A stretch of DNA of 64,000 bases from an uncultured Gammaproteobacteria bacterium (lineage in GTDB: Bacteria; Patescibacteriota; Microgenomatia; UBA8517), in NCBI GenBank assembly GCA_964435575.1, contig CAYSZS010000001.1:43206-107205 (forward strand), given 5' to 3'. This document shows, piece after piece, positions 3,620-11,240 of the stretch. Position 1 is the first letter of the stretch. Every line of letters begins with the position of its first letter. Both the position numbers and the translations under genes were made by a program. The notes under the pieces are model-generated. The model did no database searches. It saw nothing but the letters and a program-made list of their open reading frames with translations, and had not been told where the DNA came from.

Positions 3620-4108
3620 ATGTTTTTTACGATGCACATTTTTGCAGTAATTTTGGCGGTTTGTATTTTGACCGTTGGTTTGATAGTAGCTAGAATTCAA
3701 AACCCATCGTTGAGTAATATTTATCGACAAAAAGAAGTTTTATCCGAGAAAGTATTACCAACACAAACTCCGACATATATACCTACCCCATTTCCAACCT
3801 CAGTTCCCAAAGACACACAAATAGATAGTTATAAATATCCAAACTCTTCTGTCATTTCCTCTTCTGGTAATAGTTTGTCTTTACAAAGTGATGATATGAC
3901 AGATGTAATAACCGGTTGGTATAAAGAAAAAATTGAAAATGAAGGAATGAGTGTTACGACTTTTGTAAAAACCCGCGCAAACGACAAAGTTTTGAATAAG
4001 TTGGTTGGAGTAAAAGAGGACGAGCAAATAAATGTCGAGATAAGTCAGGAGGGAGCTGGACAAACAGTTGACATATCAGTTAGTTTTTTGAATGAAAGTG
4101 ACAACTGA
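3620..4108 (+). CDS. N-terminally membrane-anchored hypothetical protein with a Pro/Thr-rich linker
   Basis: An N-terminal TM helix is followed by PTQTPTYIPTPFPTSVP. I recognise no conserved domain. Confidence 0.45.
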   Translation: MFFTMHIFAVILAVCILTVGLIVARIQNPSLSNIYRQKEVLSEKVLPTQTPTYIPTPFPTSVPKDTQIDSYKYPNSSVISSSGNSLSLQSDDMTDVITGWYKEKIENEGMSVTTFVKTRANDKVLNKLVGVKEDEQINVEISQEGAGQTVDISVSFLNESDN

Positions 4109-4975: not shown

Positions 4976-5155
4976 ATGGCGCTTGATTTATCAAATCAAA
5001 AAATATCCGAAGCTTTGATACTAGAGATTAAGGACGCTTTGAAAAGCGTTAAATCTCATGGAAGCGTGGAAATCTATATCCAAGGAGGGCTGGTAACTCA
5101 GATTACTGTGCGTAACATCAAAAAAACTAACAGTAAATTCGGCCAAAAATCCTAA
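4976..5155 (+). CDS. Small DUF2292 (YezD)-like protein, 59 aa
   Basis: Not in the supplied ORF track because it is under 60 aa. The translation is MALDLSNQKISEALILEIKDALKSVKSHGSVEIYIQGGLVTQITVRNIKK..., which matches the YezD/DUF2292 signature (YGSVEIxIQxGKVVQI). Confidence 0.5.
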   Translation: MALDLSNQKISEALILEIKDALKSVKSHGSVEIYIQGGLVTQITVRNIKKTNSKFGQKS

Positions 5156-5261
5156 TCCTCATAACTCAAGCAAAAAGGACATAATCCCATCGACGCTTAC
5201 TATACATAACAGAAAATCTATAGAACAGTGGGAACGATTATATCTTTGCAATATTGGCCTA

Positions 5262-5290
5262 TTGACAAAACAAAATGAGCTTGTTATATA
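5262..5290 (+). promoter_or_regulatory. Sigma70-like promoter with an extended -10 (TTGACA-17-TGtTATATA). It drives a roughly 260-nt structured leader ahead of repeat-protein gene A.
   Basis: Read directly from the sequence. The -35 is at 5262-5267 and the -10 at 5285-5290. Confidence 0.5.
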
Positions 5291-5555
5291 TAAATATCCA
5301 GTCCATAGATATTAACCTATATCTATAATAAAACTGAGTAAAATGTATCTCTGCCCAAATGACATGTAATTTTTTGAGAGCTGGCCGCAAACGGAGGCTT
5401 TCCGGTTTGACTTCGTCCAACGGACGATTTTAGTCGAATCGGGGAGTCTCCGTTTTCGTTTGAAAGCGGGGTGTTTAGGGTGAAGTGCCTAGCCCCGTTA
5501 GATGCGTAAGCTATCTAACTGGGGTGACCAAAAAGAAAGGGGGTGAAAATAAATA

Positions 5556-6863
5556 ATGACTAAACTACAGAAGAAAATTGCAACAGCTATTGCAACAGGT
5601 GCACTATTGTTTCAGACTGTTATTCCAGTTTTGGCACAAAGCACAACTTTAGTTATTTCTGGAAACGGTGCAGAGACTGATAACGACATCAATCTTAGTC
5701 AGACAACTACAACAACCGTTGTTCAGAATAACGTGGCAAATATAAGTAACAATGTAGACGCCGACGCTGAAACCGGTGAAAATGATCAAAATTACAATAC
5801 AGGTGGACCTGTATCTCTTACTACGGGCGACGCAACAACAGGAGTTGCTATATCAAATACTGCAAACTCAAACGTTGCCGAGGTAAGTGGTTGTTGCGAT
5901 GTTGATGTTGATGTAGAGATTAGCGATAACGGTTACAAAAGTGATAACACCGCTAATTTGAAACTGGATAATTCGACTGCTTTATTCCAGAACAATTATG
6001 CCTACATCAAGAATGAGGTCGACGCCGAATCTGAAACCGGTGAAAATGATCAAAATTACAACACAGGTGGACCTGTTAGCATGGAAACCGGAGATGCGGA
6101 TACCACTGTTCTTATAGCAAATAAAGCCAATTCCAATTGGGCTAAAATCGGCGACGGAAGTGGTGGTGCATCAGTTAGCTTAAAGATTATTGGTAATGGT
6201 GCAGAAACCGATAACGACATTAATTTGTTGTTCGATCGTTCTTTGTTACTAACCCAGGATAATTACGCTAACATCAAAAATAAAGTAGATGCCGATGCTG
6301 AAACCGGTGAAAATGATCAAAATTACAACACAGGTGGACCTGTTAGCCTGGAAACAGGCGACGCAACTACCGTAGTTGGAATTGATAATTTGGCTAACTT
6401 CAACTTCGCAGATCTTAATTGCGGTTGTCTTTTGGATGTCGTTGCAAAAATAGCCGGTAACGGCTATAACGCAGATAGCGACATAAGCGCAGCTCTTTTA
6501 GATACTAAAGCTGCTTTCCAAACCAACAGCTACGTTTGCGGATATGGTTACCAATTCCCATGGGGTGGAGGAGGTGATTTATCCTTCCCATGGTACGGTT
6601 ATCAGAAGAAAGCCTGTAATGATGTCGACGCAGAAGCTGAAACCGGTGAAAATGATCAAAATAAAAATACCGGTCACAGTGCTGATCCGTCTATGGAAAC
6701 CGGTGACGCTACGACATGGGTCGATATTGAAAACACGGCCAACTCTAACGTTTTGATTGAAGGCGGTTTGGGTTTACCAGAACTTCCAGATTTCGATTTC
6801 GAATTTGATCTTGGATTCAACTGGCTCCTTTGGTGGGGTCTGTTGTCTGGAAATTCAAGCTAA
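5556..6863 (+). CDS. Secreted N/T/G-rich repeat protein, paralog A
   Basis: Signal peptide present. There are four copies of a roughly 90-aa module (GNGAETDNDINL ... NxxNxDA(E/D)TGENDQNYNTGGPVS(L/M)(T/E)TGDA(T/D)T ... N(S/F)N). The CC/CxC motifs are GCCDVDVDV and NCGCLLDV. A strong RBS (AAAGGGGGTGA) lies upstream. Confidence 0.85.
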   Translation: MTKLQKKIATAIATGALLFQTVIPVLAQSTTLVISGNGAETDNDINLSQTTTTTVVQNNVANISNNVDADAETGENDQNYNTGGPVSLTTGDATTGVAISNTANSNVAEVSGCCDVDVDVEISDNGYKSDNTANLKLDNSTALFQNNYAYIKNEVDAESETGENDQNYNTGGPVSMETGDADTTVLIANKANSNWAKIGDGSGGASVSLKIIGNGAETDNDINLLFDRSLLLTQDNYANIKNKVDADAETGENDQNYNTGGPVSLETGDATTVVGIDNLANFNFADLNCGCLLDVVAKIAGNGYNADSDISAALLDTKAAFQTNSYVCGYGYQFPWGGGGDLSFPWYGYQKKACNDVDAEAETGENDQNKNTGHSADPSMETGDATTWVDIENTANSNVLIEGGLGLPELPDFDFEFDLGFNWLLWWGLLSGNSS

Positions 6864-6925
6864 GTAGACTTTGGGAACTCGGGGTTGGTCTTCCCGCACT
6901 TCGGAGGACCACCCTGAAGCCCAGA

Positions 6926-6949
6926 GACAGGTACCGTACGGTACCTGTC
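6926..6949 (+). terminator. Perfect 24-nt GC-rich palindrome (GACAGGTACCGTACGGTACCTGTC). Hairpin and likely terminator after repeat-protein gene A.
   Basis: Read directly. It lies 63 nt after the stop at 6863, inside a GC-rich patch (6864-6960) of an AT-rich genome. It is not followed by a clean U-tract. Confidence 0.4.
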
Positions 6950-7151
6950 CAGAGTTACGGATTAAACGGATTTTATACGGGTTTCACAGATTACAAAATT
7001 AACTAATTAACAGATCACAATATATAAAAAATCTGCCCAAATGAAAATTATTTTTGAAAATATAGAAATTAGGCTGATAAACCAAACTAAAGGGAATGAA
7101 TTCGGACAAGATTTGAGATTTTTACGAAAAATAAAAGATAGGCTAGCAAAT

Positions 7152-9452
7152 ATGGTAAGAAGAAAAGTTAAAGTAAAGAAATTACTGGCTACATTTATGA
7201 TGGCTTTAGTATTGTTGGTGCAAAATCCGTTAGCTTTGGTAGCACAGGAAGCACCAACCCCTCCCCCATCACCAACCGCACCCGCTGAGCCGACGCCTCT
7301 ACCAGATGCTACGGAACTAACTCCGCCGGAAACACAAACTCCTCCAACTGAACCGACCCCGCCGCCTCAACCCACTGCACCGACTGCTCCAACCGCACCT
7401 ACTTCGCCGACTGCTCCTTCCTATGAGACGTATGTGACACCTACCCCCATTCCTTTACCGACGACATATTCAAGCTCATCGTCGAACCAGAGTGCGGGTT
7501 CTACGGCATCAACAAGTGGAGATTCAGGGAGCAGTACTACGCTATCCTCTCCGACCTCCGGAGCAGGGAGTCAGAATCAAAACGGACAAGCCGGGTCAAC
7601 TACGATAGCAACCGGGGACGCAACGAATGTCGGAAACATTTCAACTACAGCAAACAACAATCTTACGTCATCCCCGCAGGTTTCGGGGTCGGGAAGCGGA
7701 GCTCAGGTGGTCAATTCGGGTAATGGGACAAGCTCGACCAATTCAGGGTCAGTTGGAGTAACAAGCGATACAAATACCATTCAGAATAATTCTGCCATCG
7801 TAGGAAATGATTTGAATCAGGAAACGACAACTGGCGATAATTCAGCCTCTATGAATACTGGAGGAGATAACGTAATAACAACGGGGGATGCAAATACAAC
7901 TGGAACTATAGTTACCGGTGTGAATACGAATCTTGATGCCGTGACCGTTTATGAATTCAATATTTCTGACGATCATCTGGGTGACTATGTTTTGGACCTT
8001 GCTAATGCAACCTGTATATCTGGTTGCACTCCCGCTGACGTAACTGTAAAAAATGACGGGAATGGTGAAGGTTCAACTAATACCGGAGATGTCGATATTG
8101 ACCTAACTGATAATACTTTCCAGACAAACGATGCCTTGATAGAAAACAATATGAATTTAATATCAGATACTGGTGACAACAAGACGAGTATGAATACTGG
8201 TGGTGATAACACGATAACAACTGGTGATGCAAATGTGTCGGGAAGTGTAGTTAATATGGTTAATACCAATATAGTTGGTAATGTCGTCTATGCGGTTGTT
8301 AACATTTTTGGCGATTTGGTAGGAGACATAATTTTACCTGACGGATCCATACTTGCCTGCTGCGTCGGTTCGGTAACTGCCACAAATGTGGCTAATGGAT
8401 CGGATTCGACTAACACAGTTAATATAGATCAAAGTAGTAGCACAACTTCCTCACAGTTTAATAATGTGGATATTCAAAATAATTTGGTTCTAGATGCCAC
8501 AACAGGAGAAAACGACGTTAACAAAAATACAAACGGTGCATCATCTGTTACAACCGGGGATGCAAACTTGGTTGCACAAGTTCTGAATGTTGCCAATACC
8601 AATCTTGTCGGAGGCAATTGGTGGCTTGTTCTGGTAAACGAAGCAGGACGCTGGATCGGAAGGATAATCGGCGCAGACGGACAAAATTATGGAGGGTCCG
8701 GAGGGTTTGAATTTATAGTTAGTGAGTCCGGAGAAATAACTGCAGTAAATTCAGGAAACGGAGCGGATTCAACAAACACAGCCAATGTCAGCCAAAGTAC
8801 AAATACCACTACCTCGCAGACAAACAATGCCACAATTGTAAACAATGTTAACTTGAGTTCAAATACTGGAGGCAATAATGCTAATATGAATACAGGTGGT
8901 AATAATTCAATAGCAACCGGCGATGCAAACGTCATTGCAAGTATTGTTAACTTTGTAAACAATAATATTACCGGTGGTGGTAAACTCTTCGTGACAGTCA
9001 TTAATGTATTCGGTAGCTGGTTGGGAGATTTTGTTGGGCCAGGACAGACAAAAGAAAATAACGATTCAGGAAATTCTGGAGGTGGCTTGGGGGGAGTAGG
9101 AGGTAATGCTTCACAAGGAGATAGTCAGGAAAGTGGTAGTGCTCAACAAAGTGGGAATTCTGAGGTAAGTAGTTCTTCAATAGCCACCAGTGTTTTAGGG
9201 TTGTTTATAAATAGTACGGGTAATGGTTCGGGAAGTATAAGTTTTGGAAATGACCAAGAGTCAGTCCAGGCAGTAATGGGTGTAAGTGATGATGGTCAGG
9301 GTGGTAATCCAACCGCCGGAAATAAAGTGGTACGCATAAATCTGGCTTGGCTTACACCTCTTATTCCTCTCGGAATATTAGTCTTATTGAGAAAAAGAAG
9401 AAAAGTGACCAAAGTTGGTGCTTCTGCCGGGACAATTAAAGCATATCAGTAG
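7152..9452 (+). CDS. Secreted N/T/G-rich repeat protein, paralog B. It has a Pro/Thr-rich N-terminal linker and a C-terminal TM anchor plus RKRRK tail.
   Basis: The ORF is open from 7041, but the signal peptide starts at the ATG at 7152 (MVRRKVKVKKLLATFMMALVLLV). The repeated module is (TGDNxxSMNTGGDNxITTGDANxxGxxVxxVNTNxxG). The CC motif is ACCVGS. The C-terminus is LTPLIPLGILVLLRKRRK. Confidence 0.85.
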   Translation: MVRRKVKVKKLLATFMMALVLLVQNPLALVAQEAPTPPPSPTAPAEPTPLPDATELTPPETQTPPTEPTPPPQPTAPTAPTAPTSPTAPSYETYVTPTPIPLPTTYSSSSSNQSAGSTASTSGDSGSSTTLSSPTSGAGSQNQNGQAGSTTIATGDATNVGNISTTANNNLTSSPQVSGSGSGAQVVNSGNGTSSTNSGSVGVTSDTNTIQNNSAIVGNDLNQETTTGDNSASMNTGGDNVITTGDANTTGTIVTGVNTNLDAVTVYEFNISDDHLGDYVLDLANATCISGCTPADVTVKNDGNGEGSTNTGDVDIDLTDNTFQTNDALIENNMNLISDTGDNKTSMNTGGDNTITTGDANVSGSVVNMVNTNIVGNVVYAVVNIFGDLVGDIILPDGSILACCVGSVTATNVANGSDSTNTVNIDQSSSTTSSQFNNVDIQNNLVLDATTGENDVNKNTNGASSVTTGDANLVAQVLNVANTNLVGGNWWLVLVNEAGRWIGRIIGADGQNYGGSGGFEFIVSESGEITAVNSGNGADSTNTANVSQSTNTTTSQTNNATIVNNVNLSSNTGGNNANMNTGGNNSIATGDANVIASIVNFVNNNITGGGKLFVTVINVFGSWLGDFVGPGQTKENNDSGNSGGGLGGVGGNASQGDSQESGSAQQSGNSEVSSSSIATSVLGLFINSTGNGSGSISFGNDQESVQAVMGVSDDGQGGNPTAGNKVVRINLAWLTPLIPLGILVLLRKRRKVTKVGASAGTIKAYQ

Positions 9453-10685: not shown

Positions 10686-11240
10686 ATGAAGAATGTAACT
10701 TCGGTACCTAAGATTACACTGGGTATTTCACTTTTATTTTTGGGCATGTTACTTTTTTTGGGAGGAAAAGTATCGCCAAGTTCTCAAAGCATAAGTTTTG
10801 AGAGCGAACCTGTAAAGGTAGAAAAACTTTCAAGCGATGAAGTTGATGATGCTAAAATTCCCAAAAGAATTATTATTCCACGATTGAGCTTAGACTTGGA
10901 AGTTAAAAAAGCAGATATTGTCAACGGATATTGGGAGGTGTTTCCCGATACCGCAGCCTGGGGATCGGGATCTGGAATTCCAGGAGAAAAAGGAAATCAA
11001 ATTATATTTGCTCATGCGAGAGAGGGACTCTTTTTACCACTTCAATCAATTAAAGTAGGTGTGAAATTATATATCTTAAGCGATTTGGGATGGTTCCAAT
11101 ATGAGGTTAGGGAGATAAAAGAAGTATATCCTAATCAGATTGAGGTGATTGCGCCGACCGAAGATGAAACACTCACTCTTTACACCTGTAGCGGGTTCTC
11201 TGACTCAAAAAGGCTAATAGTCATTGCAAAAAGAGTTTAG
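10686..11240 (+). CDS. Sortase family transpeptidase
   Basis: N-terminal TM anchor. The active-site motifs are the His (IIFAHAR), the Cys (TLTLYTCSG, matching the sortase TLxTC signature) and a downstream Arg (SKRLIVIAKRV). The overall arrangement parallels SrtA. Confidence 0.85.
   Translation: MKNVTSVPKITLGISLLFLGMLLFLGGKVSPSSQSISFESEPVKVEKLSSDEVDDAKIPKRIIIPRLSLDLEVKKADIVNGYWEVFPDTAAWGSGSGIPGEKGNQIIFAHAREGLFLPLQSIKVGVKLYILSDLGWFQYEVREIKEVYPNQIEVIAPTEDETLTLYTCSGFSDSKRLIVIAKRV

Follow-up and report, generated by a model that had tools for sequence, protein, structure and literature searches.

The 64,000-nucleotide stretch of contig CAYSZS010000001.1 (assembly GCA_964435575.1, Microgenomatia lineage UBA8517) analysed here, which we call the window, carries a gene for a secreted, repeat-containing protein (gene A) whose leader is a conserved RNA family absent from Rfam. 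The leader contains a long, terminator-shaped hairpin with a near-invariant base, which we call P1, followed by a short motif, GAAGUGC, that appears from its pattern of conservation to base-pair with the loop sequence GCACUUC of a hairpin in the 3' untranslated region (UTR) of the same mRNA. P1, the GAAGUGC motif and a near-perfect Shine-Dalgarno (SD) sequence are common to about 185 related loci. The explanation that we prefer, and to which we give a roughly even chance of being right, is that positions 5296-5555 are the leader of the gene A mRNA and that this conserved family acts post-transcriptionally, together with the 3'-UTR hairpin, to protect the message.

The extent of the leader was set from its promoter. 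A preliminary description of the window had placed a promoter at 5262-5290 and a leader of about 260 nucleotides (nt) ahead of a strong ribosome-binding site, and both placements held: the promoter elements are of consensus type and invariant in close relatives, and the ribosome site carries GGGGGTGA. The start site of gene A is predicted from the promoter to lie near 5296-5298. An exact TTGACA is found at most 150 nt 5' of GCUGACCGC, the near-invariant 9-mer that flanks P1, in 125 of 138 distinct loci, 91 of which have a full promoter-like site there. In none of the 138 does a full promoter-like site occur in the stretch from P1 to the ribosome site, nor is there a promoter-like site near the ATG of gene A, where the preliminary description had considered that transcription might instead begin. 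Only 15-25 nt separate the end of the -10 element from GCUGACCGC in many lineages, and P1 thus stands near the promoter; the clade of the window has an additional 5' leader extension of ~90 nt. The elements follow one another in the order promoter, GCUGACCGC, P1, U-tract, second copy of the P1 base motif, GAAGUGC, a variable hairpin and the ribosome site. The SD word (A)GGGGGTGA or GGAGGTGA stands a few nt 5' of the start codon in nearly every locus (or, in nearly all loci, (A)GGGGGUGA or GGAGGUGA), and a hairpin of different sequence occupies the position of the variable hairpin (P3) in other loci. The preliminary description had also called the leader GC-rich and structured, as it is. The GC content is ~0.5 at 5350-5550 compared with 0.25-0.36 on either side, the fold is more stable than that of shuffled sequence (z = -5.0 to -5.5), and the folding energy is -74.6 kcal/mol for the + strand and -54.5 for the - strand. 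The palindrome reported there (TAGATATTAACCTATATCTA, 5306-5325) lies within an AU-rich 5' hairpin whose TAACCTATA is invariant across the five closest loci, and its GC-rich stem candidates, GCGGGGTG (5466-5473) and GCCCCG (5492-5497), pair in the predicted fold. The leader has three copies of the word AAA(C)GGAGG, one in the 5' arm of P1, one past the U-tract and one at the SD.

The dominant and largest feature of the leader is P1, which the preliminary description missed. Its 10-base-pair (bp) base, AAACGGAGGC/GCCUCCGUUU (with G(C/U)CUCCGUUU on the 3' side), is near-invariant and its upper stem covaries; in the genome loci the element reads aGCUGACCGC-AAACGGAGGCuu, then a variable stretch, then GCCUCCGUUU-UUUU, 100-240 nt before the start codon. 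RNAalifold predicted 21 pairs for P1, 12 of them with compensatory changes. In the pair count 95.5% of the cells were paired and 212 were double-change cells, compared with 49 ± 10 after shuffling (none of 500 shuffles reached the real value), and slid controls gave 36-57% paired. The conservation and covariation in relatives on which the preliminary description had staked its reading of the leader were therefore present, and in a hairpin that it had not named. The 5' arm varies less than the 3' arm, where C-to-U changes that give G-U pairs are tolerated, and the frequent U-G pairs in the upper stem make the structure specific to the + strand. Run over the whole window, a covariance model of the element found a single copy, at 5375-5465 of the + strand with 67.8 bits (22 bits on the - strand), and nothing upstream of B or C, the two paralogs that follow gene A. 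Among 151 distinct sequences the stem measures 19-34 bp (median 23) with a sharp lower limit near two helical turns, the helix length (~two turns, 20 bp or more) that marks RNase III hairpins; in the genome set P1 is 48-82 nt long, and hairpins down to ~31 nt were detectable there. The GGAGG at 5393-5397 is locked in the stem, the AGGC:GCCU segment having a pairing probability of 0.99. The 9-mer flank hardly varies, with GCTGACCGC in 133 of 186 loci and 1-2 bases different in the remainder; its predicted pairing with the SD or with the CGG copy amounts to just 3-4 base pairs, all of them invariant. A leader peptide within P1 (UUG plus 8 codons after GGAGG) was considered and rejected, since its start and frame are not kept elsewhere and the stem covaries as RNA.

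P1 has the shape of an intrinsic terminator, with the base GGAGGC/GCCUCC followed by GUUUUCGUUU, and is the only canonical hairpin-plus-U-tract at the locus, the 3' hairpins of gene A having no U-tract. In 153 distinct sequences positions 1-4 after CUCCG are at least 97% U and the 9 nt average 7.4 U, positions 1-3 having been set by the search pattern in part of the set and positions 4-9 being free. Terminator-like sites in the first 20 kilobases (kb) numbered 25 against 16.5 ± 4.3 expected, which is no clear excess. Past the U-tract, the 5'-base motif of P1 recurs as GAAAGCGG, which can form an alternative hairpin, P2, with CCGUUUUC. Most loci have an A-rich stretch ending in CGG(A) at this place, which repeats AAACGGA and is pairable with (U)CCGUUUU to make P2, and the P2 helix anchored on CCG:CGG has a mean of 5.2 bp compared with 2.7 bp in shuffled sequence. 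At equilibrium in the intact leader, full P1 has a probability of 0.84 and P2 of 0.02. Since P1 wins at equilibrium, P2 would form via CCG only when the P1 5' arm was removed or held open. A base that is frozen while the upper stem drifts would follow if one segment must pair with two partners.

In L013 (2296-2500), a syntenic Woesebacteria locus, GCUGACCGC and P1 are deleted, and the promoter, AU-rich hairpin, CUGCCC, P2, GAAGUGC, P3 and SD are retained. P1 is therefore dispensable in at least one genome. L201-L208 (Logan/Joint Genome Institute contigs of 1.35-1.55 kb) carry gene A alone, starting inside or after P1 and stopping 1-41 nt past the stop codon. In L201 an Illumina adapter is fused at GTCGGGGTGCCTCCG in the P1 3' arm, and in L205 an adapter lies 20 nt past the stop codon. 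Such contig ends may reflect ends of RNA molecules, but they would be equally well explained if assembly had broken at conserved sequence flanking a variable gene.

The second conserved part of the leader, GAAGUGC, is present between P2 and the ribosome site in most loci. Its proposed partner lies at the other end of the message, in a 3'-UTR hairpin that is kept, 10-30 nt past the stop codon, in the large majority of 131 loci examined and whose apical loop in most loci, (A)GCACUUC(G), is exactly reverse-complementary to the 5' motif. The mean unpaired probability is 0.91 for the 3' loop and 0.59 for the 5' motif. The two motifs were located independently, the 5' motif as the RRGUG nearest the SD and the 3' motif as the CAC of the apical loop once the 3' UTR had been folded, in a set of 119 loci that gave 91 distinct rows in the formal count. 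The seven core positions pair in 83-100% of 92 distinct combinations, compared with 14-48% for the flanks. In the formal count of the helix 95.6% of the cells were paired and there were 19 double-change cells against 3.9 ± 1.7 shuffled (again reached by none of 500), with the rows related and the independent events fewer; slid controls gave 32-48% paired. Three pairs of the helix show changes on both sides. Compensatory variants include AAGGUGC with GCACCUU in L080 (the same type in L020 and L054), GAAGUGU with ACACUUC in L011, L121 and L163, CAAGUG with CACUUG in L176, and UAAGUGU with ACACUUA in L124. The two UTRs of one mRNA thus hold complementary segments, as in hbs of Bacillus subtilis, and their complementarity is kept by compensatory change. 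A match of at least 7 bp between loop and leader was found in 99 of 131 loci, compared with 17 of 131 when the loop was reversed, and by strict motif detection both motifs were absent together in eight loci. In the window GCACUUC has 6 copies against 4.4 expected, and only the gene A pair sits in UTR hairpins. The position-anchored analysis was used in place of a global score of best complementarity between leader and 3' UTR, which was uninformative (19.6 real against 17.3 shuffled) as AU-rich runs match by chance. An extended duplex past the 7-bp core (-48 kcal/mol by RNAduplex in the window) was rejected: it shows no co-evolution, and swapped leader and 3'-UTR partners give equal energies, which makes it generic complementarity between GC-rich hairpins. 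Immediately after the conserved 3'-UTR hairpin comes a second hairpin that is a perfect 9-bp palindrome, GACAGGTACCGTACGGTACCTGTC.

The distribution of the element was examined in two ways. Of 80 loci collected through protein A from species-representative genomes, 66 have the P1 element. An independent scan of metagenome contigs by DNA pattern alone returned 120 contigs, in 107 of which a gene A homolog starts shortly after P1; inspection added 3 further homologs (110 of 120 in total), 9 contigs were too short to judge, and 1 has a distantly related signal-peptide protein after P1. The 107 include L089 and L091, whose matches are weak and distant and start ~350 nt past the hairpin. Since the pattern scan places P1 before gene A homologs, the element is a gene-specific leader. 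Groundwater metagenomes from the Rifle and Hainich sites are among those with the locus. In L197 (1545-1900), L089 and L091, P1 is followed by a longer leader that carries several CUGCC(A/C) boxes, and the signal-peptide protein encoded there is a more distant one; the leader may serve more than one branch of the gene A protein superfamily. The comparison with Rfam that the preliminary description proposed yielded no known family: the whole window had no match to Rfam 15 at gathering thresholds, and a lenient scan of 5100-7300 returned only unrelated families far below threshold (SSRC8_2, 24.9 bits against a threshold of 72). ARAGORN found no transfer RNA or transfer-messenger RNA genes.

Table 1 Features of the gene A locus, by position in the window
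Feature	Position	Strand	Basis or detail
DUF2292 small-protein gene, 59 amino acids	4976-5155	+	Pfam PF10055, E = 3.6e-6
Promoter: -35 TTGACA 5262-5267, 17-nt spacer with TG 5282-5283, -10 TATATA 5285-5290	5262-5290	+	Invariant in close relatives
AU-rich 8-bp hairpin, loop UAACCU	5305-5326	+	Predicted fold; clade-specific
CUGCCC box, core of shared 13-mer	5351-5356	+	Motif count in leaders
9-mer flank, near-invariant: GCUGGCCGC here, consensus GCUGACCGC	5380-5388	+	Alignment
P1, long terminator-shaped hairpin, 67 nt, ~30 bp	5389-5455	+	Fold, covariation, covariance model
U-tract UUUUCGUUU 5453-5461, then GAAAGCGG 5462-5469	5450-5469	+	Sequence, alignment
Small hairpin UAGG-GUGAAGUG-CCUA carrying GAAGUGC (5482-5488)	5476-5491	+	Conserved motif
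P3, variable hairpin between GAAGUGC motif and ribosome site	5493-5524	+	Predicted fold
Strong SD sequence AAAGGGGGUGA	5536-5546	+	Core GGGGGTGA 5539-5546, 9 nt before ATG 5556
Gene A, 435-amino-acid secreted protein, four beta-rich repeats	5556-6863	+	Open reading frame and translation
3'-UTR hairpin, apical loop CGCACUUC 6895-6902 with GCACUUC 6896-6902	6869-6926	+	Fold z = -5.6
Second 3' hairpin GACAGGUACCGUACGGUACCUGUC, without U-tract	6927-6948	+	Predicted fold
Second CUGCCC box, non-coding DNA upstream of paralog B	7033-7038	+	Within 13-mer 7032-7044

The preliminary description had built its case on a different part of the leader, an exact 14-mer shared with the region upstream of paralog B, whose chance duplication it held to be very unlikely and which it suggested was a shared element controlling an array of surface-protein genes. 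This was borne out only in part. The 14 letters at 5349-5362, CTCTGCCCAAATGA, are one mismatch away from ATCTGCCCAAATGA at 7031-7044, the coordinates had been off by one, and the exact shared word is the 13-mer TCTGCCCAAATGA at 5350-5362 and 7032-7044. Repetition of such a word is ordinary: 234 distinct 13-mers repeat more than 200 nt apart in the window, and base-shuffled copies of the window have 56-89 repeated 13-mer pairs. The main conserved element, P1, is present as a single copy before gene A only. What stood is the core of the shared word, CUGCCC, which is a real, strand-specific motif that recurs upstream of B; it is limited to some clades and is a minor part of the picture, not the main element. 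Of 180 leaders, 42 contain CUGCCC, where 0.46 would be expected, and 2 its reverse complement; the motif usually lies 25-50 nt 5' of the 9-mer, and some leaders hold 2-3 copies spaced roughly 15-20 nt apart. Upstream of paralog B it was found in the window and in L001/L102, L058, L010/L169 and L128; in L001/L102 and in L058 its place is the equivalent one. Beyond the 13-mer, too, the stretches preceding A and B are alike, CTGCCCAAATGA-N4-TAATTTTTTGAGA comparing with CTGCCCAAATGA-AAAT-TATTTTTGAAAA (window 7006-7151), and the region upstream of B is conserved in L001 (about 3886-4107). The open reading frame of paralog B was listed from 7041; its true start is probably the ATG at 7152, just before the signal peptide.

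In the explanation that we prefer, the 5'-3' contact, the stability of the hairpins and ribosome occupancy of the strong SD would together shield the gene A mRNA from 5'-end-dependent and endonucleolytic decay, and the shielding would make the message long-lived and heavily translated. P1 would be a double-stranded module of at least ~20 bp that is cut by RNase III-type processing, whereupon its 3' strand, CUCCGUUUU, would re-pair with the downstream AAAACGGA(G) and form P2 as a 5'-proximal protective hairpin, the least certain step of the scheme. We lean, weakly, toward such a processing role for P1 because of its length of at least two turns, the idle downstream copy of the base motif and the position of the L201 adapter in the 3' arm. 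That the downstream copy is conserved yet unused at equilibrium would fit a role after cleavage. The consensus promoter and the near-perfect SD in nearly all loci suggest very high expression, and a post-transcriptional role fits the strength of promoter and SD, the hairpins at both ends of the mRNA and the conserved contact between the ends. From these signals we infer that the gene A product is made in large amounts; gene A and the DUF2292 gene that precedes it are probably among the most heavily expressed loci of the Microgenomates.

Several observations weigh against this explanation. The conserved U-tract after P1 suits an intrinsic terminator and is explained less naturally by a stability model, which does not account for the invariant 9-mer flank either. 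With 25-90 nt between the predicted 5' end and its first base, P1 is too distant to guard that end alone, and L013 lost P1 and kept the rest of the leader. The contact between the UTRs is short, at seven base pairs, and the 5' motif is in many lineages part of a linker, not of a hairpin loop. Its covariation rests on the edge positions, since the three central pairs never vary and were used as anchors, and because the sequences are related the independent compensatory events are perhaps 5-8, not 19. Finally, complementarity past the core shows no co-evolution: matched and swapped UTR pairs from 97 loci have the same duplex energy (-25.8 and -25.8 kcal/mol).

The U-tract leads directly to the main rival explanation, possible although we hold it to be somewhat unlikely, in which P1 is a working intrinsic terminator or attenuator and most transcripts stop near 5461 unless a factor allows read-through. 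That factor would recognise the invariant 19 nt GCUGACCGC-AAACGGAGGC and could be an RNA-binding protein, possibly DUF2292, or the 30S subunit at GGAGG. The GC-rich base runs directly into a tract averaging 7.4 U of 9 in the sole canonical terminator shape at the locus; the P1 5' arm and flank are more invariant than the 3' arm, which suggests that the 5' strand itself is recognised; there is no promoter past P1, so that gene A depends on passage through it; and the DUF2292 gene is a near-universal neighbour. Against attenuation, no alternative antiterminator pairing was found 5' of P1, where the leader is AU-rich and, in the short-leader lineages, unconserved. Terminator stems are usually much shorter than the 19-34 bp of P1, with its sharp lower limit. 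A strong terminator would also be odd beside a consensus promoter and a perfect SD, and the conserved copy of the base motif past the U-tract would have no role. A related scheme, which we consider a long shot, starts from the close resemblance of the invariant P1 base (5389-5398 with 5446-5455) to the helix that the SD of gene A (5536-5546) makes with the 3' end of 16S ribosomal RNA: AAACGGAGGC/GCCUCCGUUU would copy AAAGGAGGUG/CACCUCCUUU and the leader would sense ribosomes. Free 30S subunits would capture the decoy GGAGG at the polymerase exit, blocking the terminator and licensing transcription, and the contact with the 3'-UTR loop would close the finished mRNA into a ring on which terminating ribosomes re-initiate. 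If true, bacteria would have a counterpart to the closed loop of eukaryotes, built from RNA alone. The same terminator shape could instead end a small-RNA gene made of promoter, 9-mer and hairpin, with GCUGACCGC as the seed and gene A reached by read-through only. The product would be ~95 nt long in most lineages and ~165 nt here, and the layout (promoter, unstructured 5' end with a conserved word, hairpin, U-tail) is that of trans-acting small RNAs. We think this quite improbable: gene A always follows the element, without a promoter between, an invariant terminator base is unusual for small RNAs, and the motifs past P1 would be unexplained. The window, moreover, has no exact complement of the 9-mer, and its one-mismatch matches number 7 against 3.1 ± 1.5, a mild excess, the element's own opposite strand included.

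Other explanations concern the remaining motifs. The pairing of GAAGUGC with GCACUUC might take place between molecules, with a 3'-UTR fragment or a second copy of the mRNA as partner and feedback control or clustering as the outcome. The 3' hairpin is long and stable and presents the word in an exposed loop (0.91 unpaired), like the kissing loops of antisense RNAs, and 3' UTRs are a well-known source of small RNAs (PMC7821165). We nevertheless judge this improbable, given that both partners lie on one transcript, which favours pairing within the molecule kinetically, and that no separate promoter or processing signal was seen for the 3' hairpin. The reading of the preliminary description, that the CUGCCC word is the key leader element and a regulator site through which surface-protein genes are co-controlled, strikes us as rather unlikely, though less so. 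The enrichment and strand specificity of the motif, its 2-3 copies in places, its recurrence upstream of B in the window and several relatives, and its presence as CUGCCAAAUGAUCUGCCA in the leader of the distant paralog L197 all speak for such a site. Only about a quarter of the leaders have it, however, and it is absent from the short-leader lineages; the strongly conserved P1 and GAAGUGC are not common to paralog B, and the exact repeat is statistically ordinary. Least probable of all, to the point that we give it hardly any credence, is that the inverted repeat AAACGGAGGC...GCCTCCGTTT is a DNA operator for a dimeric transcription factor. Its arms are near-invariant and lie just past the promoter in many lineages, but their spacing ranges from 28 to 62 nt, the sequence between them covaries as a helix whose U-G pairs would be mismatches on the other strand, and the covariance model scores the - strand far below the + strand (22 against 68 bits).

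The surroundings of the leader are also conserved in part. The DUF2292 gene lies directly 5' of the leader on the same strand in 166 of the 174 loci with enough upstream sequence, and its product has the strongly conserved core ALKSVxSYGSVEIYIQxGxVTQITVRNIKKT. The model of the DUF2292 protein consists of a helix and a beta hairpin and gave no informative fold match and no hint of RNA binding. Protein A carries a signal peptide, and it contains four ETGENDQNYNTGG...TGDA-type repeats. It has 287 homologs at E <= 0.001, of which the named ones are from Woese-, Ames- and Gottesmanbacteria (Microgenomates, Candidate Phyla Radiation), and the genome loci extend the range of gene A to Levy-, Davies-, Chisholmbacteria and others; its nearest named relatives are from Candidatus Woesebacteria. 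No family in Pfam or NCBIfam matched it. An AlphaFold model of protein A built with 34 sequences is all-beta with very long strands (mean predicted local distance difference test score 74), and Foldseek found no significant match among solved structures (best E-value 0.067, template-modelling scores near 0.05). Protein A thus matched no known surface-layer (S-layer) family or fold in Pfam, NCBIfam or Foldseek, and it may be a surface-layer protein of a new kind. Gene A is followed by the two larger paralogs B and C and then by a sortase gene (10686-11240). The C-terminus of protein A (6780-6860) reads LPELPDFDFEFDLGFNWLLWWGLLSGNSS, a hydrophobic tail after an LPxxP-like motif, and the sortase gene lies ~4 kb downstream, past B and C; tail and sortase together may point to anchoring in the cell wall. 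Gene A diverges much faster than its surroundings, an identical DUF2292 protein being present on 47 contigs and an identical protein A on 2. L013 hardly differs from the window in the promoter and in the 3' half of the leader, yet the two have only 49% identity in protein A. Such fast divergence suggests diversifying selection or cassette exchange of a surface protein.

A covarying pairing and a hairpin with an invariant base, found in ~185 loci from several candidate phyla of uncultured, small-genome bacteria, form a natural data set on the role of end-to-end pairing of mRNA in bacteria. With them, a lineage for which few regulatory RNAs are known gains an RNA family that had not been catalogued, and the leader element could double as a simple DNA marker of gene A.

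Among known systems, leader attenuators (riboswitch platforms, T-box, RAT/LicT and HutP-type leaders) place a hairpin and U-tract between promoter and start codon. The gene A leader shares with them an invariant sequence that overlaps the 5' arm of the terminator shape. It differs in that no aptamer, antiterminator or Rfam match was found, that its stem has at least two helical turns and that the U-tract precedes, and does not follow, the competing copy of the stem. Nor does it resemble a riboswitch or T-box in layout, since in many lineages only ~15-25 AU-rich, unconserved nt precede the 9-mer. Processing of a leader into a more stable form has other precedents. In Staphylococcus aureus cspA, maturation of the leader by RNase III reportedly leaves a more stable mRNA. 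In the STAB-SD of Bacillus thuringiensis cry3A (Agaisse & Lereclus 1996, cited in PMC8309801), a very highly expressed gene, an SD-like GGAGG stands far 5' of the start and processing of the leader yields a more stable mRNA. The gene A leader also has an SD-like GGAGG far 5' of the real start; it is not a STAB-SD, because this GGAGG is paired in P1 (0.99) and is not free for 30S subunits. The 5' UTR of Lactobacillus slpA, an S-layer gene, forms a stem-loop that is reported to stabilise the transcript and leave the ribosome-binding site exposed (PMC10221546). Gene A resembles it in the probably abundant surface protein, the strong promoter and the long structured leader. It differs in that P1 is not at the very 5' end, that gene A is not shown to encode an S-layer protein, having no family or fold match, and that invariant blocks and a 3'-UTR partner like those of the gene A leader are not described for slpA.

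Pairing of the 5' UTR with the 3' UTR is rare in bacteria, and the known cases are single-species ones, at least some of which, including hbs, are unconserved in close relatives. S. aureus RNAIII makes a 7-bp 5'-3' contact of a size similar to that of gene A (PMC7821165). In S. aureus icaR the anti-SD sequence UCCCC of the 3' UTR blocks the ribosome site and creates an RNase III substrate, thereby repressing the gene (PMC7821165). The gene A pairing is not of this anti-SD type, because in every locus 26-106 nt separate its 5' partner from the SD downstream. In B. subtilis hbs (Braun, Durand & Condon 2017, PMC5737220), a highly expressed gene, the two UTRs form a duplex that limits cleavage of the leader by the endonuclease RNase Y, and this duplex, along with initiation by ribosomes at a strong SD, shelters the mRNA from RNase Y and RNase J1. 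Gene A has the same combination of structured 5' UTR, strong SD, probable high expression and long-range pairing between the UTRs, and it is by analogy with hbs that we propose the protective logic. The two differ in form, hbs having a 14-bp linear duplex over a mapped cleavage site and gene A 7-8 bp with an apical loop; their sequences are unrelated, and the gene A pairing is predicted from sequence. They differ also in conservation: the hbs 3' UTR is among the functional 3' UTRs that are not conserved in close relatives (review PMC7821165), whereas the gene A pairing holds in the large majority of ~130 loci across several candidate phyla. The gene A leader is thus most like the hbs arrangement with a terminator-shaped leader hairpin added, and its predicted 5'-3' contact is unusually widely conserved.

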